This document shows positions 1,693 through 26,997 of a DNA stretch of 28,338 bases, piece after piece. The notes beneath the pieces were generated by a model. It did not search any database. It saw only the letters and a program-made list of their open reading frames with translations, and was not told where the DNA came from. Source of the DNA: Thermoprotei archaeon (GTDB lineage: Archaea > Thermoproteota > Methanomethylicia > Nezhaarchaeales > WYZ-LMO8). The position numbers and the translations under genes were made by a program. The stretch lies in contig QMSN01000001.1 of the NCBI GenBank assembly GCA_003650865.1, positions 1 through 28,338 of the forward strand, given 5' to 3'. Position 1 is the first letter of the stretch. Each line of letters opens with the position of its first letter.

Positions 1693-2209
1693 AGTCAAAG
1701 TTCCAATAACAGCCGAGGAGAGAGAAGTCCTCAAAGCCAAGCTGAAGGAGCTTAAAGCAGATTTCTTGGGGAAAGCAATAGAAGTTGACGTGTTCTTAAG
1801 TCATCCCTGCTACGACCTCGGAGATAAGGGACATACGCTTAAACTGCGTGTGAGGAATGGAGAGGGCAAGATCATACTTAAGGAAAGGGTTGAGAGACAA
1901 GATGTTAAGGCAAATATAGAGCTAGAAACTGAAGTTACAAGTCCACGATTGTTCCTCGAAATCCTAAAGAAGCTGGGGTTCAAGGAGACCTTAACCGTGA
2001 AGAAGTTAAGGGAAACATACTTGTTAAGTGACGTATACATCCACTTCGATGAGGTGGATGGCTTAGGGCTCTTTGTTGAAGTAGAGCTCTTAAACCATAA
2101 GGTCGAGAAGAGAGCTATAGAGAGAGCTTTGGCGACTTTGGGACTTGAGGGTAAGATGTTGATAACAGCTGGATATGCTGACCTGCTTAGTAGGGGCGGC
2201 GTTACGTAA
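1679..2209 (+). CDS. CYTH-domain protein (class IV adenylate cyclase CyaB-like / triphosphate tunnel metalloenzyme)
   Basis: N-terminal EVEVK (ExExK) motif, KKxRxxY, and D.VDGLGLFVEVE. Confidence 0.85.
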   Translation: MLEVEVKVPITAEEREVLKAKLKELKADFLGKAIEVDVFLSHPCYDLGDKGHTLKLRVRNGEGKIILKERVERQDVKANIELETEVTSPRLFLEILKKLGFKETLTVKKLRETYLLSDVYIHFDEVDGLGLFVEVELLNHKVEKRAIERALATLGLEGKMLITAGYADLLSRGGVT

Positions 2210-3900: not shown

Positions 3901-5121
3901 TTGGCCAAGAAGATGGACTTCATCTCGATAGAGAGGTTATCGCAGAAAGCCGTTTACGAGCAGGAAGTCGAGATGGTTGAGAGAAAGGGGAAGGGGCATC
4001 CAGACACATTAGCTGACAACTTGTCTGAGGCTGTGTGTAGAGCTCTCTGCAACTACTACATGGACAAGTACGGTGCAATACTGCACCACAACGTCGACAA
4101 AGCCCTTGTAGTTGGAGGAAGATCCATACCGACGTTCGGCGGCGGCGTTGTATGTGAACCGATATATGTAGTTGTAGCTGGCAGAGCAGTGACTCACGTG
4201 GTTAAGGAGAACAACGTTGAGATGGTGCCCATAGGGAGCCTGGCCATAGAGGCTATGAGGGAAAGCATTAAGAAAACCTTTAGGCACCTAAACCCAGACG
4301 TCCACGTTATACTTGACTACAAGATAAAGCAAGGATCTGAGGACCTAGTCAAGGTATTTGAGCTTGGAAAAGGGATTCCGCTGGCCAATGACACCTCATT
4401 CGGAGTAGGGTACGCACCTCTCACTGAGACGGAGAAGTTAGTGCTTGAAGTAGAGGGCCTCTTGAACTCCGACGACTACAAGAAGAAGAACCCAGCTGTA
4501 GGAGAGGACATAAAGGTCTTAGCTGTTAGGAGAGGTAAAAAGGTGGACTTGACTGTTGCCTGCGCCATGATAAGCGCCTACATAAACAACTTAGATGATT
4601 ACCTCAAGGTCAAGGAGGACGTTAAGGGGGACGTCTTAAACTTAGCGTCTAAGTACCCAGACCTCGAGGTGGACGTGGAGGTCAACGCCGCCGACAAGCC
4701 GGATAGAGGAGTGATATATCTAACGGTCACGGGGACCTCGGCTGAGGCAGGAGATGACGGCAACACGGGGAGGGGTAATAGAGCTAATGGACTGATAACG
4801 CCTAACAGGTACATGTCGCTTGAAGCAGTAGCTGGCAAAAACCCCGTCAGCCACATAGGTAAGATATACAACATAATCTCGACTAACATAGCCAACAGGA
4901 TATACGAGGAGACGGGCAAGGTCAAGGAGGTCTACGTGCACATGCTTAGCCGCATAGGGAAGCCCATCAACGAGCCCCTCGTCGTCAGCGTGAAGGTAAT
5001 ACCTCACGACGGCATCACCGTAGAGAGCTTACGCTCTGACATAGATGGCATAGTGAGGAATGAACTGGAGAACATAGAGAACGTGAGGGACTACTTGCTC
5101 AAGGAACCATTAAGGCTTTAG
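3901..5121 (+). CDS. mat: Archaeal-type S-adenosylmethionine synthetase
   Basis: VERKGKGHPD, HHNVDK, ANDTSFGVGYAP, GRGNRANGLITP and AGKNPVSHIGK. Confidence 0.96.
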   Translation: MAKKMDFISIERLSQKAVYEQEVEMVERKGKGHPDTLADNLSEAVCRALCNYYMDKYGAILHHNVDKALVVGGRSIPTFGGGVVCEPIYVVVAGRAVTHVVKENNVEMVPIGSLAIEAMRESIKKTFRHLNPDVHVILDYKIKQGSEDLVKVFELGKGIPLANDTSFGVGYAPLTETEKLVLEVEGLLNSDDYKKKNPAVGEDIKVLAVRRGKKVDLTVACAMISAYINNLDDYLKVKEDVKGDVLNLASKYPDLEVDVEVNAADKPDRGVIYLTVTGTSAEAGDDGNTGRGNRANGLITPNRYMSLEAVAGKNPVSHIGKIYNIISTNIANRIYEETGKVKEVYVHMLSRIGKPINEPLVVSVKVIPHDGITVESLRSDIDGIVRNELENIENVRDYLLKEPLRL

Positions 5122-8821: not shown

Positions 8822-10749
8822 GGCTTTTCTGACCTCCCAATCTCCTTGAGCAACTCCCCGACTTTCTCTCGGACTATTTGGTTCACAAGCTTTCCATCAA
8901 CTTTCCCTCTGAGGTGCGCCATGACCTTACCCATGATGGCTTGGACAGCCCTCTCACCTCTGCTCTTGACTATCTCCACATTCTCGCGTACAACCTTATC
9001 CACGAAGTCCTTGACATCCTCTAGGGTCATGGCTTTGAAGCCGAGCTTTTCTATGACCTCCATGACTGTACACTGGGGGTTCTCAGCCATACCTCTTAGT
9101 ACTTCAGGTATGGCCTCCTTCGCTATGATGCCCTTGCCCAACGCTCTAAACACGTCAATTATCTTGTGCTCGTCGATGTTGTCGAGTGGAACGCCTTCAC
9201 GCTTTAAGCTCTTCCACGTGTACTCTAAGGTAGTTGCAATTATCGTTGGTGAGACCTCAGGAACGCTTGAGACTATTCTTTCGAATAAGTCTAGTCTGTA
9301 GGAGTTCACCATGAGCAACGCCAGATCCTTGCTTAAACCGTATTCCTCTATGAAGCGCTTAAGCTTCTTCTCAGGCATTTCGGGTAGAGATCTCGATATC
9401 CCCTCAAGCCTTTCCTTCGTTATCACTATGGGCCTCACGTCGGTCTCTGGATACATTCTAGCGGCTCCGGGTCTAGGCCTCATGTACCTCGTCGTCCCAT
9501 CAGGGTTGGCAGCCCTAGTCTCGTCGGGGACCCCCTTAATGGCTTCTCTACACCTTCTAGCAACTGCCTCGAGAGCTCTTCTAGCCTTGTCCACTTCGTC
9601 CACTACGAAGACCACGGCGTCCATATCGCCGCACTTAAGGTGCTCTTTCAGCTCATCCACTTCCTGCTGAGAGATGCCGTAAGCGGGCATCTCATCCGTG
9701 TGGAATATCCCCTTAACCCCGCCCCATACAACAGCGTAGTCCTTCAGCTCTGTGCCAAACCTCCTGCCAGGCTGAACTTCTCGTCCAAGTAGACCAGCGA
9801 AGCCCGGTAGCTTAAGTGCCAGCACTCTGCCCCCTCTCTTAATGCCTTGAGATATCACCTTGCTCTGAGAGCCACGGAATATGTCGGTGACGTCCACCAC
9901 TTCGCATTCGACATCAGTGACCCCTCTGCTTTTAAGCTCCTCCGTTATCTGAAGAAGTTTGAGTTGCCTCTCGACCTCCAACTCAACAACCTTTGATAGG
10001 AGCTCTAAGTCCTGAACTCCCTTAATCTCAACCCTAGCGCCCTTCTCCAGCGATATGTTGAGATCCTGTCTTATAGTCCCCTTACCCCTCTTAACCTTCC
10101 CAGATATCCTGAAGAGCTGCCCCAACTTCAACGCTACCCTCTGAGCTTGCTCCGGACTCCTTATCTCAGGGGCTGTTGCAACCTCTATTAGAGGGATGCC
10201 GAGCCTATCAAGTCTATACACAACTTCTTTCTCGCTCTCAGAGATTTTCCTAGCAGCATCTTCTTCAAGACATATCGTCTGTATGTGGACGGGGCCTTCA
10301 GAATCCTCTATGACGCTATCCCTTGAGCCCAACGCCACTATCGCCGTCCTCTGAAAGCCCGTAGTGTTGGAGCCATCTATGACCACCTTCCTCATCACTT
10401 GAATTACGTCAGGGATGTTGGCCCTTAACATCAAGGCTATTCCAAGAGCTATGTCCAAGGCCTCGTCGTTGAGCTGGTGCGGAGGCTCTTCATCCATCTC
10501 GACGAGACACGTTGAGTCGTTGTAGGCCTGGTATATGAAAACCTTGCCCTTCTCGTGCTCTAATAGGGCGGCCTCGTCAACAGTCCCTAGCTCACTCCTC
10601 GTAGGGCGTAGGTACCTCATGAAGACCACGTCGGGTTCGTCATCTCTCAACGTCGTCGGGCAAGAGCAGAAGAGCTTGTGTTTCGTGTTGAGCTGCTGGT
10701 GAAGCTCTAAGCCAACTTTCAAGCCAAGCTCGGCATATTTACTACTCAA
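8818..10749 (-). CDS. gatE: Glutamyl-tRNA(Gln) amidotransferase subunit E
   Basis: GLKVGLELHQQL, KLFC, VIDGSNTTGFQRT, RLDRLGIPLIE and GAARMYPETD. Confidence 0.97.
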   Translation of the reverse strand: MSSKYAELGLKVGLELHQQLNTKHKLFCSCPTTLRDDEPDVVFMRYLRPTRSELGTVDEAALLEHEKGKVFIYQAYNDSTCLVEMDEEPPHQLNDEALDIALGIALMLRANIPDVIQVMRKVVIDGSNTTGFQRTAIVALGSRDSVIEDSEGPVHIQTICLEEDAARKISESEKEVVYRLDRLGIPLIEVATAPEIRSPEQAQRVALKLGQLFRISGKVKRGKGTIRQDLNISLEKGARVEIKGVQDLELLSKVVELEVERQLKLLQITEELKSRGVTDVECEVVDVTDIFRGSQSKVISQGIKRGGRVLALKLPGFAGLLGREVQPGRRFGTELKDYAVVWGGVKGIFHTDEMPAYGISQQEVDELKEHLKCGDMDAVVFVVDEVDKARRALEAVARRCREAIKGVPDETRAANPDGTTRYMRPRPGAARMYPETDVRPIVITKERLEGISRSLPEMPEKKLKRFIEEYGLSKDLALLMVNSYRLDLFERIVSSVPEVSPTIIATTLEYTWKSLKREGVPLDNIDEHKIIDVFRALGKGIIAKEAIPEVLRGMAENPQCTVMEVIEKLGFKAMTLEDVKDFVDKVVRENVEIVKSRGERAVQAIMGKVMAHLRGKVDGKLVNQIVREKVGELLKEIGRSEKP

Positions 10750-12130
10750 GACCCTTCACCTCCAGATACGCTTTGTACTCAGTCCTAGGCTTGATCTCCC
10801 CCGCTATGTTCGTGAGCATAAGCCTCTTTACCTCATCTATGCTGCTGGCGTTAGCTAAGCACCACATGAGCTTAACTAAAGCAGTCTCAGGCAACATGTC
10901 TTCACAAGGTATGACGCCCATCCTCAAGAGCTCGACGCCAGTCCTGTACACATTCATGTTGACCCTCCCCCACAGGCACTGAGACGTCATGGCCACTACG
11001 ATGCCTGCATCTACAAGCTTTCTTATGGAGGGAAATACGTAGCTGGGCGTGTGGCCAAGACCCGTGCCCTCTATGACAACTCCTCTAAAGCCAGACTCCA
11101 AGACCCACTCTAAAGCCTCAGCTGGTATGCCGGGATACACCTTGATGAGCGCGGCCCTACTATCAAACCTCGGCTTAACGACAAAGTCCTCTTTCGTACC
11201 GCGGGGTTTTAGGTTGCTGGCCAACACGACAACATCTCTACCCCCTATGACCTTCGCTATGGGCTTGTCGTTTACAGCTTTAAAGGCATCCCTTCTACTC
11301 GTATGGCATTTCCTAACTTTAGCTCCACGGTATACCGCTAACACGTCGTCGCTTATGTTCTCGTGCATGACAACTACGACTTCAGCAAAGGGAGCACGGG
11401 ATGCTACGGCTGTTGCCCCCATCATGTTTAGTGCTGCGTCGGACGAAGGTCTATCAGACGACCTCTGAGCACCCACCAAAGCCACTGGTATGGGCAAGCC
11501 TTGTAGAGCGAAACTCAAGGCTGCGGCGGTGTAACCCATCGTGTCGGTTCCGTGGGCTATTACAACACCATCAACTCCGCTCTCAACCTCTTTAGCCACA
11601 GCTTCAGCTATCTTGGTCCAGTATTCAGGCCTCATGTCCTCGCTGAAGATGTTAAATATGGTCTTGGTGTTTATGACAGCTATCTCGTTGAGCTCAGGAA
11701 TCGACTCGTAGAGGTCCTCAGTCGTCAGTGAGGGATAGACGGCTCCAGTCTTGTACTCCACTTTACTGGCTATCGTGCCGCCTGTACCAAGAACTGTGAC
11801 CCTAGGTAGACCTCCTCTCGAGATTTGTTGAAGAGCCCTCTCTACCACGCTTGGAGAAGCTTTAGACACAAGCTGAACCTCAACCTCCTTAAGTCTAAAA
11901 CCTATGTTGTAGCCGTTGTCGAGCTTTATTACTATGTAGTCATCTCCTAGTACCTCGGTCCTTGGCATGAGGAGGCCTTCGTAGACAGCGTCACCCTTCA
12001 CGACCTTAACCCTATCGTAAACCCCTATCCCCTTCACTTCGAGTGGTGCTGGGACTTCAGAGCCACCACTAGACGGCAAGCTACACACCACTCGTAGAAG
12101 AAGCCTAAAACTAGAAAAGCTTGCTGTCAC
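10742..12130 (-). CDS. gatD: Glutamyl-tRNA(Gln) amidotransferase subunit D; carries a candidate 60-nt BHB intron near the 5' end (alternative start TTG at 12079)
   Basis: KLDNGYNIG, GTGGTIAS, HGTDTM, QRSSDRPSSD and HTSRRDAF asparaginase-like motifs; adjacent to gatE. Confidence 0.96.
   Translation of the reverse strand: MTASFSSFRLLLRVVCSLPSSGGSEVPAPLEVKGIGVYDRVKVVKGDAVYEGLLMPRTEVLGDDYIVIKLDNGYNIGFRLKEVEVQLVSKASPSVVERALQQISRGGLPRVTVLGTGGTIASKVEYKTGAVYPSLTTEDLYESIPELNEIAVINTKTIFNIFSEDMRPEYWTKIAEAVAKEVESGVDGVVIAHGTDTMGYTAAALSFALQGLPIPVALVGAQRSSDRPSSDAALNMMGATAVASRAPFAEVVVVMHENISDDVLAVYRGAKVRKCHTSRRDAFKAVNDKPIAKVIGGRDVVVLASNLKPRGTKEDFVVKPRFDSRAALIKVYPGIPAEALEWVLESGFRGVVIEGTGLGHTPSYVFPSIRKLVDAGIVVAMTSQCLWGRVNMNVYRTGVELLRMGVIPCEDMLPETALVKLMWCLANASSIDEVKRLMLTNIAGEIKPRTEYKAYLEVKGLE
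12035..12094 (-). other. Candidate BHB mRNA intron in gatD (60 nt, in frame)
   Basis: Canonical geometry on the mRNA strand: outer helix CUU/AGG, central 4-bp helix CUUC/GAAG, 3-nt bulges UAC and UGA, inner 8-bp helix GAGUGGUG/CACCACUC. Canonical cuts fall on codon boundaries. Confidence 0.6.
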
Positions 12131-22913: not shown

Positions 22914-24022
22914 GCATGGAGAATGCTGTGCCAGAACGCGTTATTGAGGACAGGCTTAAGAGGATCTTGGATTTAGCGTCGAGAGAGGGCTTAGAGTACG
23001 TCCTGTTAGCGCAGCCGGAGAACGTTCAGTACGCAACGGGTTTTGACGTGGTCGGCAATCCCCCTAAGACAGCTTACGCGCTTGTAGCTGAGAGCCTTGA
23101 AGGGCCTATACTCATGGTTCCACCGCTTGAGTACAAGGAGGCAGTTGACACGGTTAGCCCGCTCGTGAAGGTGGTGTCATTCAAGCTCGGTGAGAAGCCT
23201 CTGAAAGCTCTGCTGAGGTTGTTGGTGGAATACCAAGTTAGGGGTTGCGTGGGGCTTGACCTTTGCACCCGCGAGATGGCTGATGGCTTAAGGGCCAAGC
23301 TTGAAGTGCGGGAAGTCAAAGACCTTAACGATGGGCTCTTAAAGCTGCGAGAGGTCAAGGACTCCTACGAGGTTGAGTGCATAAGGCAGGCTACGAGGGT
23401 CGTCGAGGCAGGTCTTCAGAGGGCTTATGAGGTTTTGAGGGAGGGAGTCAGGGAGGTTGACGTAGCAGCTGAAGTGGAGAGGGCCTTGAGGATCGAGGGG
23501 GCTGAGGGCATGGCCTTTGACACCATAGTCGCCTCAGGGCCACGGTCAGCCTATCCTCACGCTAAGCCCACCAAGAGGGTCATCAAGAGGGGGGAGGTGG
23601 TCGTCGTAGACCTAGGGGTTAGAGTGCACGGCTACTGCTCTGACATGACTAGGACCTTCATCGTCGGAGAGAATCGAGAGGCCTCGCAGGTGATAGCAGC
23701 CGTTAAAGGAGCTCAGGAGGCGGCGCTCAAAGTCATGAGGGATGGCGTCAAGGCCTCGACGCCGGACGCAGAAGCTAGGAGGGCTCTGAAGGAGAAGGCG
23801 CTCGACGAGTACTTTATTCACAGCCTCGGTCACGGGGTAGGGCTCTCAGTTCACGAAGGTCCTGCGCTGTCATCCTCTAGCAACGACGTGTTGAGAGAGG
23901 GCAACGTCGTAACCGTGGAGCCAGGGGTTTACATCCCGGGTAAGTTTGGGGTTAGGTTAGAGGACGTCGTCTTAATTAATAAAGGAGGGTGGAGTAGAAT
24001 ATCGAGGCTGGAGGGTTTATGA
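22907..24022 (+). CDS. pepQ: Xaa-Pro aminopeptidase/prolidase (M24B)
   Basis: Creatinase N-domain, then VDLG...GYCSDMTRT, HSLGHGVGL.VHE, TVEPGVY and RLEDVV. Confidence 0.9.
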   Translation: MLSMENAVPERVIEDRLKRILDLASREGLEYVLLAQPENVQYATGFDVVGNPPKTAYALVAESLEGPILMVPPLEYKEAVDTVSPLVKVVSFKLGEKPLKALLRLLVEYQVRGCVGLDLCTREMADGLRAKLEVREVKDLNDGLLKLREVKDSYEVECIRQATRVVEAGLQRAYEVLREGVREVDVAAEVERALRIEGAEGMAFDTIVASGPRSAYPHAKPTKRVIKRGEVVVVDLGVRVHGYCSDMTRTFIVGENREASQVIAAVKGAQEAALKVMRDGVKASTPDAEARRALKEKALDEYFIHSLGHGVGLSVHEGPALSSSSNDVLREGNVVTVEPGVYIPGKFGVRLEDVVLINKGGWSRISRLEGL

Positions 24023-25587
24023 TGGAGTTTAGCTTGAAGGGGTACTTCACCTTCAACAAGCCGCTTCAAGGAGTTGAGGAAACTCTCAAGGAGGTTATTG
24101 ATGAGGCCAATAGGAGCATCCTCGTGAAGGGCGTGCCGAAGGGAAAGGAGGGTGAGGGTGCTAAGGTAACTGCTTGGAGGATTGAGGACGGAAAACTCTA
24201 CGTGGAGATATCCTCTGGGAGGTACGTGAGGGCTCACGATGCCCTCTTCAGGCTTAGGAAGCTCATAGGTGCAGAGCTGGGTAAGAGGCATAGGATAGGC
24301 GTGAGAGGCTTTGAGGTCTTGAACTACGTCATCAAGGTCCCAGGCTTCAAGGGGGACTTGAGCGAGGTTGAAGACCTCTTAGGCGACCGTGGAGTAGCTG
24401 AACTCACAGGCGACCTATTGACCATAGAGCTCAGAGGCGTCGAGGAAAGCGACTTAGAGGCTAGGATAGTGGATAGGCTCGTGAAGGCCCTCGTCAAGCC
24501 CGAAGCTGAGGTAGAGGCTCCTAAAGCCCTCCTAGTACCCTTCGGCCACGTAATCGAGCAGTCAAGCCCCAAGCCTGTGAAGTTTAACCTCGAAGTCGCC
24601 AGCGAAGCAGAGAAAAGGAGCTGGATAAAGAGGTTCCCAGCTAGAGGACAGTGGATATTCACAGGGCCCATGGTAGGCCTCCTAAAGGTGATGCGTGACT
24701 TAATAGTAGAGAACGTGTGTAGACCCCTAGGGTTTGAGGAGTGGATGTTCCCTAGGCTCATACCTCTAACCGTCCTCGAGAAGCTCTCAAGCTACGTTGA
24801 ACACCTCCCCGAGGGAATGTTCTACGTCTGTGTACCCCCACGAGACCCCTCAGCATTCGATGAGTACAAGAGGGAGTACACTCTGAAGAGGGTTTTGAGG
24901 AAGGACTTATTGAAGGACATACTGGGCGAACCCGAGTACGTGCTAGACGCCGTGCAATGCCCACCATTCTACCAGTTCTTCAGCAGCGAAACCGTTAGGA
25001 TTGAGGAACTCCCCATAAAGGTGTACGAGTGCATGGGCGGCTGGACTTGGAGAAATGAGGCTGGAGGAGTGGAGGGCCTTGCCAGGACCAACGAGTTCTG
25101 GCGCATGGAGATGGTGTACCTAGGGGCACCCAGCGACGTGGTCAAGATAAGGGAGGAGGTGGTCTCGAAGACGTTGAACCTCGTGGACAAGGTCTTAGAG
25201 CTCGAGTGGAGAGTTGTAGTAGGCGCGCCGTTTTACCTGTCGAGCGAGGAAGCTAAGAAGAGGAAGATCGACATATCGTCTAGGGACAAGATACCGACCA
25301 TAGACATTGAGTGCTACTTGCCTTATCGAGGTAAGAGGGAAGAGGCGGAGTGGCTTGAGATAACGGCTGCCAGTGTCCACTACAAGCACTACGTCTCAGC
25401 CTTTAGGATAAAGGAAGTTAAGGGCAGGGAGATATGGACTGGCTGCACGGGGCATGGCCTCACAAGGTGGGCTACCGCCTTCCTAGCCCAACACGGCTTC
25501 GACCCATCCAACTGGCCTAGCGCTGTCAGAGATAGGTTTGAGAAGTATGGGCCATATAGGCAAGTCAAAACGCTTGAGTGGCCATAA
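24019..25587 (+). CDS. serS: Seryl-tRNA synthetase, methanogen (rare) type
   Basis: N-terminal alpha/beta domain with SGRYVRAHDA, GQW motif, and Zn-ligand candidates in QCPPFY, NEFWRMEMV and WTGCTGHG. Confidence 0.92.
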   Translation: MMEFSLKGYFTFNKPLQGVEETLKEVIDEANRSILVKGVPKGKEGEGAKVTAWRIEDGKLYVEISSGRYVRAHDALFRLRKLIGAELGKRHRIGVRGFEVLNYVIKVPGFKGDLSEVEDLLGDRGVAELTGDLLTIELRGVEESDLEARIVDRLVKALVKPEAEVEAPKALLVPFGHVIEQSSPKPVKFNLEVASEAEKRSWIKRFPARGQWIFTGPMVGLLKVMRDLIVENVCRPLGFEEWMFPRLIPLTVLEKLSSYVEHLPEGMFYVCVPPRDPSAFDEYKREYTLKRVLRKDLLKDILGEPEYVLDAVQCPPFYQFFSSETVRIEELPIKVYECMGGWTWRNEAGGVEGLARTNEFWRMEMVYLGAPSDVVKIREEVVSKTLNLVDKVLELEWRVVVGAPFYLSSEEAKKRKIDISSRDKIPTIDIECYLPYRGKREEAEWLEITAASVHYKHYVSAFRIKEVKGREIWTGCTGHGLTRWATAFLAQHGFDPSNWPSAVRDRFEKYGPYRQVKTLEWP

Positions 25588-25651
25588 TCAATCTCTGAAA
25601 TCAAATGATGAAATAAAGTTGTAATTTTCGAGGGTTTGAGGAGGCTACTAT

Positions 25652-25786
25652 TCATTTAGGAGTGAAGCTGTCGCAGCTGTCAGCTGGAGTGGTCCATATG
25701 GACCTAGTCTTGCAGTAATTCTTCTCTAAGTCGTAGTTCTTGCAGTTGTAGCAAGAGCCCTTAACGAAGCCTATAGTTGCTGACAT
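25652..25786 (-). CDS. Small four-cysteine protein, 44 aa (not in ORF track)
   Basis: MSATIGFVKGSCYNCKNYDLEKNYCKTRSIWTTPADSCDSFTPK* (CX2CX9CX12C); SD GGGTGA 5 nt before the ATG; TATA-like TTTTTAAA upstream. Confidence 0.75.
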   Translation of the reverse strand: MSATIGFVKGSCYNCKNYDLEKNYCKTRSIWTTPADSCDSFTPK

Positions 25787-25817
25787 TAAGGTCACCCAGA
25801 GAAAGTTCCAAGCGTTA

Positions 25818-25834
25818 GTTTAAAAATTTTAAAC
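25818..25834. promoter_or_regulatory. Perfect inverted repeat overlapping the TATA box of the small Cys protein gene
   Basis: GTTTAAAA-A-TTTTAAAC (8-bp arms, 1-nt spacer). Confidence 0.45.
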
Positions 25835-25852
25835 AGGGTGAACAGCCGTTGC

Positions 25853-25915
25853 GGCGTCAGTCCGCCCATCATATATCATCGCTTGGGCTCTTAGACCGTC
25901 ATCTCTTCATCCGCC
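25853..25915 (-). ncRNA. Box C/D guide sRNA, predicted to guide 16S rRNA Cm1402 (E. coli numbering)
   Basis: GGCG-G-AUGAAGA(C)-GAUGACGGU-CUAA(D')-...-AUGAUAU(C')-AUGAUGGGCGGA-CUGA(D)-CGCC. It has a terminal 4-bp stem and K-turn geometry, and the D guide pairs over 10 bp with the conserved 16S CCGCCCGUCA. Confidence 0.85.
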
Positions 25916-25918
25916 ACC

Positions 25919-25946
25919 TAATTAATTAAAGAGGGCAGTTATTAAT
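25919..25946. promoter_or_regulatory. AT-rich divergent promoter region between the C/D sRNA and the DHH gene
   Basis: TAATTAATTAAA and TTATTAAT boxes in an otherwise GC-richer context, about 25 nt from plausible starts on each strand. Confidence 0.45.
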
Positions 25947-25986
25947 GTTCTGCGTGGAGGGGGGAGGCATTAAGCTTAGAGAGTTC

Positions 25987-26982
25987 ATGGAAGCTGGGCC
26001 CCTAATGGTGCTTGCACACGGCGATAGGCCTTGAGCCCGCCAGTCTGACGGTGTGTGCTCAGCTTCAATTGTGAAGCGGGTATTCGGCGAAGTCGAGTTG
26101 AAGTTCACTCAGCCTTCTAGGCTTCACAGGGATCTCGAGGCGTTGGCTTCAAGCCAGAAGCTCCACGCGAGCTCTCTCCTAATAGTTGATTTAGCCATCA
26201 ACGTCGATGTTGCCGAGCGCTTCGCCTCAGCCGTAAGACACCTCATGCAGAGGGGTGTTAAAATGGTGTATGTAGACCACCACCCCCCACCGGCTGGCAT
26301 TGAAATCCTCGGCTTTGCTGATGAGGTCATCGTGAATACTCGTGCCTCATGTTCTGAGCTCATATACCACCTATTCGCTGAAGGCGACGGCCACTCAGCT
26401 CTTTTAGCTGCTTATGGGGCTATAGCCGACTCATTCGACGACACAGAGTTCGTCAAGAGCCAGATGCTCAAGTGGGGTAAGGGAATCCTATACTTCGAGT
26501 CTGAGATGCTTAGCCTGGCGTTATTAGGCATGAAGGCAGTTGAGCTCACATCAGTAGCTGATGAGCTAGCGAGAGGCTTAAGGGTTGGACGCATAGACTT
26601 GGTGGTCACCAGGGCTATTAGGAACTTGAGGCTCGACTACGAGGTTCAGCGATACGTCGAGGAGAACGCTGTAATCGAGGGGCCCATAGCTCTAATCGAG
26701 GAGGTCCCTCAAAGAGGGTTTGCGGGTAGAGCTGCCAGCTACGCCTTATCACTAATCACTGGAGACGTGGGTATAGGGATTGCCTCGAGGTTCAACCGCG
26801 AGTTCGTTGAGTGCTCTCTTAGAGCTAGAGGAGTGGACTTAACAAGGTTCATGCCCGAGATAATAAGGGAGGTCGGGGGATCAGGTGGAGGACACCCCTA
26901 CGCCTACGGCGTCAGGGTTTCGGCTCAAAAGTATAAAGAGTTCCTCGAACTCTTAAAGCTTAGAGCGATGACATATGCTTAA
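25987..26982 (+). CDS. DHH/DHHA1 phosphoesterase (NrnA/RecJ-like), split by an 18-nt intron; start uncertain (in-frame ATGs at 25945, 25987, 26005)
   Basis: Exon 1 ends ...VLAHGD and exon 2 begins SDGVCSA..., giving motif I HGDSDG. IVD, YVDHH and GGSGGGH motifs follow downstream. The ORF-track product (26053) lacks motif I. Confidence 0.88.
26026..26043 (+). other. BHB/BHL-type mRNA intron (18 nt) with in-frame TGA
   Basis: GGCG/CGCC 4-bp central helix, 3-nt bulges AUA and AGU, inner hairpin GGC-CUUGA-GCC, outer helix GCACAC/GUGUGC. Canonical cuts AU^A and AG^U remove exactly AGGCCUUGAGCCCGCCAG. Confidence 0.85.
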
Positions 26983-26997
26983 AGTGGTGCCCTAGAG

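Follow-up and report, generated by a model that had tools for sequence, protein, structure and literature searches.

Splicing of archaeal mRNA by the tRNA splicing endonuclease has been confirmed, in the literature searched, only for cbf5 and HVO_1309 (PMC2738675, PMC10485636), and a 2023 review expects that further cases will be found (PMC10485636). Here we consider a candidate for such a case in a 28,338-nt stretch of DNA (hereafter, the window) from a Thermoprotei archaeon of the class Methanomethylicia: an 18-nt insert, containing a stop codon, that divides the first catalytic motif of a DHH/DHHA1 phosphoesterase gene, and that is likely to be a real bulge-helix-bulge (BHB) intron in the DHH pre-mRNA. 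The window is the entire contig C1 (QMSN01000001.1) of a 1.25-Mb metagenome-assembled genome (MAG) with a completeness of 72.7%.

The crenarchaeal cbf5 intron (Watanabe 2002; Yoshinari 2006; Yokobori 2009, PMC2738675) resembles the DHH insert in several respects: (i) both are short inserts in coding sequence that present a relaxed BHB motif to an (alpha-beta)2 EndA; (ii) both disrupt or abut the codon of a catalytic Asp, with a product that would be inactive unless spliced; and (iii) both lead gene callers to mis-annotate the host gene. The host genes differ, however, and the DHH insert lies in phase 0, after the Asp codon, whereas the cbf5 intron lies in phase 1, within it; the DHH insert also measures 18 nt, compared with 33–39 bp for cbf5 introns (PMC2738675), and the DHH case is known from sequence alone. 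Having a DHH phosphoesterase as its host, in a genome with a cbf5 intron of its own (contig C125), the insert falls outside the cbf5 intron family, and is quite probably an intron of the cbf5 type for which both host gene and lineage are new. The literature searched yielded nothing linking DHH genes, or coding genes of Bathyarchaeia, to BHB introns; to that extent, the suggestion made in a preliminary description of this DNA, that an intron in a DHH gene may be undescribed, holds.

Cleavage of an archaeal mRNA by EndA at a BHB, followed by re-ligation, is described for the HVO_1309 mRNA of Haloferax volcanii (Schwarz 2020, PMC7714728; discussed in PMC10485636). This is the course of events proposed for DHH, although HVO_1309 is a different gene, and belongs to a euryarchaeon with an alpha2-type enzyme. 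The segment excised from HVO_1309 reportedly comes from the 5' portion of the transcript rather than from a catalytic motif. The non-canonical mini-introns of archaeal pre-tRNAs match the DHH insert in size range, in cut rule and in the enzymes proposed to act; the DHH substrate differs from them in being an mRNA without a tRNA body, in which the reading frame must be kept. HAC1/XBP1 splicing, in which IRE1 and a tRNA ligase or RtcB act on stem-loop signals in a stress-regulated eukaryotic process, provides a functional analogy only: there too, an endonuclease acting together with an RNA ligase removes a short mRNA intron independently of the spliceosome, and the encoded protein is changed. 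The endonuclease and the signals are different, and no homology is claimed.

An insert dividing motif I of the DHH gene

Read in frame, the DHH/DHHA1 gene begins ATG GTG CTT GCA CAC GGC GAT [AGG CCT TGA GCC CGC CAG] TCT GAC GGT GTG TGC, where brackets enclose the insert. Translation from the ATG at 26005 gives M-V-L-A-H-G-D, then R-P-stop-A-R-Q, then S-D-G-V-C-S-A-S, after which the frame is open to 26982 (312 further codons). The in-frame TGA (26032-26034) thus lies inside the 18 nt (26026-26043) that part HGD from SDG, exactly as the preliminary description had read them. Its further claim, that removing 26026-26043 deletes the TGA and restores HGDSDG, is borne out by translation, which gives M-V-L-A-H-G-D-S-D-G-V-C-S-A-S and the spliced N-terminus MVLAHGDSDGVCSAS..., as well as by the match to orthologues: exact excision of the 18 nt produces LAHGDSDGVCSAS[I]VK, compared with LAHGDSDGVCSAS[V]VK in the best homologue, P0002, and the best homologues as a group read LAHGDSDGVCSAS(V/A). 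The spliced N-terminus aligns to orthologues from residue 1-2 onward, and the predicted spliced junction is ...CACGGCGAU^UCUGACGGU... across 26025/26044.

The gene can accordingly be divided, on the plus strand, into a predicted exon 1 (26005-26025; M-V-L-A-H-G-D), defined by translation and by orthologue N-termini with 4-8 residues before HGD; a putative intron (26026-26043; A-GGC-CUUGA-GCC-CGCC-AG, including the TGA); and a predicted exon 2 (26044-26982; S-D-G-V-C-S-A-S..., 312 codons plus stop), in which DHH motifs II-IV and the DHHA1 GGGH motif are intact. An alternative in-frame ATG lies upstream at 25987. Because one population (L025, SRR21024894) has ATG>ATA at 25987-89, translation probably starts at 26005 rather than at 25987. 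The open reading frame (ORF) downstream of the insert matches Pfam DHHA1 with 34 bits (cut-off 25.9), while the match of the truncated ORF to Pfam DHH reaches 25.5 bits (cut-off 28.1) and begins at profile position 15, the first motif being missing. The orthologue alignment shows no variation in its DxD (after splicing), DHH and GSGGGH columns, and the window gene contains all of the motif residues that are invariant in the family. Its nearest solved relatives, RecJ2 and NrnA, are matched only at E values around 1e-3.

All 17 orthologous loci from 40 relatives have an uninterrupted H[GA]DxDG, as do 77 of the 80 taken from named genomes across Archaea, so that the insert is missing from 94 of 97 loci in total; alignment to orthologues, proposed earlier as a check, therefore identified the 18 nt as extra sequence, and no checked orthologue carried a translated 6-aa insert. 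The latter also bears on recoding, in which the TGA would be read through or the 18 nt bypassed by the ribosome. Apart from an insert length that is a multiple of three, nothing specific speaks for this mechanism; read-through would place six residues between the metal-binding Asp residues, and a hop would lack matching take-off and landing codons (GAU versus CAG/UCU). We consider the probability of recoding to be very slight.

Public gene calls for this locus are products of 303-309 aa without motif I, the kind of mis-annotation by pipelines that the preliminary description had foreseen. Since these calls begin after the insert, they might be taken to reflect unspliced expression from a downstream start, GTG 26053 or GTG 26071, which would yield a DHH protein without motif I. 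Such a product would, however, be without the two motif I Asp residues, and residues D2 and G3 of exon 2 do not vary in the family; moreover, the homologous sequence MVLAHGD is still encoded, in frame, by the seven codons 5' of the insert, which is unexpected for an untranslated leader. A downstream start is thus improbable, if somewhat less so than recoding.

As the window is a MAG contig, the insert might in principle be an assembly or sequencing error, a concern that had been raised with the initial reading. We found the insert and its flanks to be identical in seven independent assemblies (ENA, Logan, JGI, NCBI), made by different pipelines from at least six samples, which differ from the window by 0.1-0.64% elsewhere. 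Samples with this population include those behind ERZ584659, SRR6823442, SRR6478753, SRR21024894 and JGI 3300014914. An assembly artefact is excluded by this result, the probability of any such error being negligible, and the insert predates the divergence of the populations.

The insert is not a tandem duplication of its flanks, and a search of the genome revealed no second copy of it. A 16/18 match on contig C95 was rejected as a second intron copy: it lies inside a ferredoxin-type gene, where it encodes GLEPAC, and is a chance match. Rfam produced no match over the intron. Just upstream of the DHH gene, on the minus strand (25855-25914), Rfam gives a weak match, below threshold, to sR41, a C/D-box sRNA family (16 bits compared with a gathering score of 54, E=0.27).

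RNA structure, register and splicing machinery

The site is laid out as GCACAC - GGCG - [AU^A] - GGC - CUUGA - GCC - CGCC - [AG^U] - CUGACGGU - GUGUGC, with the bulges in brackets and carets at the predicted cuts. All of its elements lie on the plus strand. The 5' strand of the central BHB helix, GGCG (26020-26023), belongs to exon 1 and can form four Watson-Crick pairs with the 3' strand, CGCC (26038-26041), which belongs to the intron. Between the two lie the 5' bulge AU^A (26024-26026; predicted cut after 26025) and the inner hairpin h' (26027-26037), composed of GGC, a 5-nt CUUGA loop and GCC; the 3' bulge AG^U (26042-26044; predicted cut after 26043) follows the helix. In cbf5 and aIF2-gamma of the same genome, 5' bulges are likewise present, of the AG^A type. 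Two 3-nt bulges on opposite strands and a 4-bp helix are thus found, as a pairing that can be drawn rather than as the minimum free energy (MFE) structure of the single sequence. The 3' bulge runs on into an 8-nt single strand (26045-26052; CUGACGGU), giving the relaxed bulge-helix-loop (BHL) form, and folding closes this loop with an outer helix in which GCACAC (26014-26019) pairs with GUGUGC (26053-26058) with a pair probability of 0.95 at 37 C. The helix, bulges and inner hairpin had all been described previously, and the pairs are present; the closing GCACAC/GUGUGC helix also stands, while its loop has to be corrected to 8 nt from 6 nt, the smaller size requiring the register GUGUGU (26051-56) and, with it, a G-U pair.

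Under the mechanism that we propose, exon GGCG would pair with intron CGCC, leaving the two bulges on opposite strands beside the GGC/GCC hairpin; the heterotetrameric (alpha-beta)2 splicing endonuclease would cut each bulge 3' of its second nucleotide; and RtcB would join the exons, deleting the TGA and recreating the metal-binding motif H-G-D-S-D-G. Cleavage and ligation of the DHH transcript, and their efficiency, are what we infer from the exact register, the homology, the enzymes encoded, and similarly built introns, both elsewhere in this genome and among orthologues.

Loose BHB-like motifs are frequent by chance, at about 8 per 90 nt, and therefore the presence of a motif alone means little. 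This frequency favors the view that the gene is a pseudogene, in which a fixed 18-bp stop-containing insertion inactivated an accessory DHH gene and the BHB pairing is coincidental. The register, however, is difficult to reconcile with coincidence. Cutting after the second bulge nucleotide places the borders at 26025/26026 and 26043/26044, which are exactly the borders defined by homology, so that the earlier statement that the cut rule removes precisely these 18 nt is confirmed. Permuted inserts had a 4-bp helix and a hairpin of 3 bp or more in the required register in 0.10-0.17% of trials, and random 18-mers of window composition passed the register test in 0.02-0.08%. Excision in any of four registers would give back HGDxDG, and correction for this raises the chance to no more than about 0.7%; overall, the register coincidence required by a pseudogene has a p of about 0.001-0.007. 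That the insert is no duplication of flanking sequence also argues against a pseudogene, which we regard as unlikely.

The motif itself was of little use in searching without homology: a genome-wide scan for ORF-repairing BHB motifs returned 3139 hits, 279 of which survived a codon-usage filter, and these were mostly fusions of adjacent genes. The scan did recover cbf5, and was non-discriminating in the absence of homology. The idea that self-complementarity of the exons makes motif I a hot-spot for insertion was likewise set aside; in a comparison of 87 intron-less orthologues the effect was weak (-6.3 versus -5.1 kcal/mol at control sites, median rank 0.32).

The genome encodes two EndA paralogues, designated alpha (188 aa, at L028:1219-1785) and beta (182 aa, at L029:1243-1791). 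The former corresponds in alignment to the catalytic half of the fused enzyme and the latter to its structural half, with matches to beta-subunit models in addition, identifying EndA, by these alignments, as the (alpha-beta)2 type that accepts relaxed motifs. Acceptance of relaxed HBh'/BHL motifs by (alpha-beta)2 and epsilon2 enzymes is described in PMC5829648. An RtcB ligase is encoded as well (602 bits). Introns of 11-31 nt occur in 16 of the 35 predicted tRNAs, and several of these are mini-introns of 11-16 nt with the same layout of a 4-bp helix and 3-nt bulges.

Coding introns elsewhere in this genome and in Bathyarchaeia

The cbf5 gene of this genome (contig C125, plus-strand coordinates about 2057-2077, minus strand) contains a 21-nt insert with a TAA, in the arrangement GGGGGG-A-CCCU-[AG^A]-GCCC-UAAGGU-GGGC-GGGG-[AC^A]-CCCC. 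Its excision restores GGTL-D-PKV, and the insert splits the codon of the catalytic Asp as G^AC, which is the published position of the cbf5 intron (PMC2738675). Here, the intron is found in Methanomethylicia, beyond the Desulfurococcales/Sulfolobales range given in that study.

A homology-guided survey, in which the ORFs of a relative from the same family (G005, 1.32-Mb main contig) were compared with this genome, identified nine non-overlapping split matches: two proved uninterrupted, about six were frameshifts of the 1-2-nt type without a BHB, and one was aIF2-gamma. Its BHB intron was the sole case in the survey of a conserved gene disrupted by more than 10 nt of inserted sequence. The frameshifted genes lie on contigs C75 (~1557-1566), C5 (~4547-4553), C213 (~516-520), C18, C205 and C2, and are probably assembly indels or pseudogenes. 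These roughly six frameshift-like breaks show that damaged-looking genes occur in this genome and, in that respect, lend some support to a pseudogene at the DHH locus; being of the 1-2-nt type, they are unlike the clean 18-nt insert.

The single-copy aIF2-gamma gene (contig C12, plus-strand coordinates 9584-9615, minus strand) has a 32-nt frameshifting insert after DCPGHE, laid out as CACG-[AG^A]-10-bp hairpin-CGUG-[AG^A]. Exon 1 matches positions 2-92 and exon 2 positions 93-407 of NCBIfam TIGR03680, so that the two are contiguous at 92/93. We found inserts of 31-35 nt at this site in 10 of 10 genomes of the family and none in the other families sampled, and RNAalifold predicted a canonical BHB de novo from them, with two compensatory pairs. 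Because the gene is essential and the frameshifting insert is conserved across four genera, aIF2-gamma must, on this comparative evidence, be spliced, and mRNA splicing by this pathway must be active in the lineage beyond cbf5. No published report of a BHB intron in aIF2-gamma was found. A further candidate, a 60-nt intron in gatD (12031-12103, minus strand), was rejected: its protein sequence can be aligned with the N-terminal residues of GatD from G005, which starts at GTG, and the stretch looks to be translated rather than spliced.

At least three coding genes in this small genome are thus split (cbf5, aIF2-gamma and DHH), each within or beside a motif of catalytic or switch function.

The three exceptions among the 80 loci from named genomes are all from Bathyarchaeia MAGs, in which MFREPIVAVTHG and CDG(I/V)CSAA are encoded in different frames with 22 nt between them. 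Within that order, the DHH gene is interrupted in 7 of 17 genomes (L118-L124), by 22, 27 or 30 nt, while the remaining 10 encode an unbroken HGD(C/G/S)DG. For six of the seven, excision by the cut rule gives back HGDCDG, with the Asp codon split as G^AY, bulges AG^A and A(G/U)^A, and a helix of 3-4 bp; the 30-nt insert of L122 failed the BHB scanner, its inner hairpin being shorter than 3 bp, and was placed by eye only. A perfect AUGG/CCAU helix characterizes the 27-nt form (L124), and the 22-nt group has a 9-bp outer helix and a compensatory change, T-A to G-C, in the hairpin. The ratio of non-synonymous to synonymous substitution rates (dN/dS) in exon 2 is 0.10-0.18 at dS 0.33-1.2, and exon 1 is conserved with synonymous changes; judged by these values, the interrupted genes are under strong purifying selection. 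Such retention of same-codon inserts by selected orthologues is a further point against regarding the window gene as a pseudogene. Two EndA paralogues are encoded by these Bathyarchaeia genomes as well.

The Bathyarchaeia introns are like that of the window in belonging to an orthologous gene family, in affecting the codon of the same motif I Asp, and in their architecture of helix, bulges and hairpin. They differ in being cut 2 nt further upstream (G^AY, compared with GAU^UCU in the window), in their lengths of 22, 27 and 30 nt and their 9-bp outer helix, and in having, unlike the window intron, support from covariation and dN/dS in several species. Because the cuts lie 2 nt apart and the window and Bathyarchaeia proteins share only about 33% identity, a separate intron gain near the same site is likely for the window gene. 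It is conceivable, although we hold this only tentatively, that EndA-type mRNA splicing is a regular and overlooked process in this lineage and in Bathyarchaeia, and that the codon of the first Asp in DHH motif I is a recurrent intron site, or an ancient one that has slid, common to more than one class.

Distribution of the DHH gene and significance of its proposed splicing

Several observations weigh against an intron, the first of which concern the RNA. The strict hBHBh' form is not attained, since the inner helix GGC/GCC is present and the outer helix lies 8 nt away from the 3' bulge. The 3' bulge has U as its third nucleotide, compared with A in the other mRNA introns examined. For the isolated RNA at 37 C, the BHB conformer has a free energy of -16.1 kcal/mol compared with a minimum of -21.2 kcal/mol, 5 above the MFE, with a central-helix probability of 2-8% and a z-score of -0.38. 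Single-sequence folding does not discriminate, however: the aIF2-gamma intron of this genome, which is proven by comparison, scores even lower (1-3% for the central helix).

Others concern the distribution of the gene. A single species carries the 18-nt intron (at least 99.4% identity), and a protein search recovered a cluster of at least 99% identity, with the next homologue at 35-36% and none between; all seven copies of the window intron are identical, and covariation is seen only in the analogous introns of aIF2-gamma and of DHH in Bathyarchaeia. The family's nine other genomes yielded no copy of the DHH gene. Whereas 1.4 kb including the DHH gene separates SerRS from a metallophosphoesterase in the window (25588-26997), the two adjoin in the relative G005 (G005:C1:647305-649895), about 280 nt apart and with no DHH gene between them, so that the gene would have been gained in this genome or lost in G005. 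By this distribution the DHH gene is accessory, and its dispensability in relatives is the main ground for retaining the pseudogene explanation. Selection within the species adds little: exon 2 of the seven assemblies contains six synonymous and four conservative non-synonymous single-nucleotide polymorphisms (SNPs), and 3 of 9 transitions are non-synonymous, compared with 66% expected without selection (p=0.044), a weak indication of purifying selection.

Nevertheless, a gene inactivated by a fixed insertion would not be expected to look as this one does, with no second lesion, stop or frameshift across 319 codons in seven assemblies, its catalytic motifs kept, and SNPs that lean toward the synonymous. 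Taken with the orthologues, the seven assemblies, the cut rule, EndA and RtcB, the introns of cbf5 and aIF2-gamma, and the DHH genes of Bathyarchaeia, these data support the real intron that the preliminary description had proposed.

The neighboring SerRS gene (24019-25587, plus strand) encodes a methanogen-type enzyme, with the Pfam tRNA_bind_4 N-terminal domain and a class II core, and fits placement in the class Methanomethylicia.

If the insert is spliced as proposed, this DHH phosphoesterase would be a new entry among the very few archaeal protein genes published as requiring splicing. Our results suggest that introns in archaeal protein genes are commoner than annotated, as gene callers truncate such genes or label them pseudogenes, the outcome here being a product that lacks motif I. 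The gain of introns at codons of catalytic motifs is now open to comparative study, and the inserts of 18-32 nt offer simple substrates for work on the specificity of the (alpha-beta)2 endonuclease. For the organism itself, production of the active enzyme could conceivably be coupled to EndA-RtcB activity.

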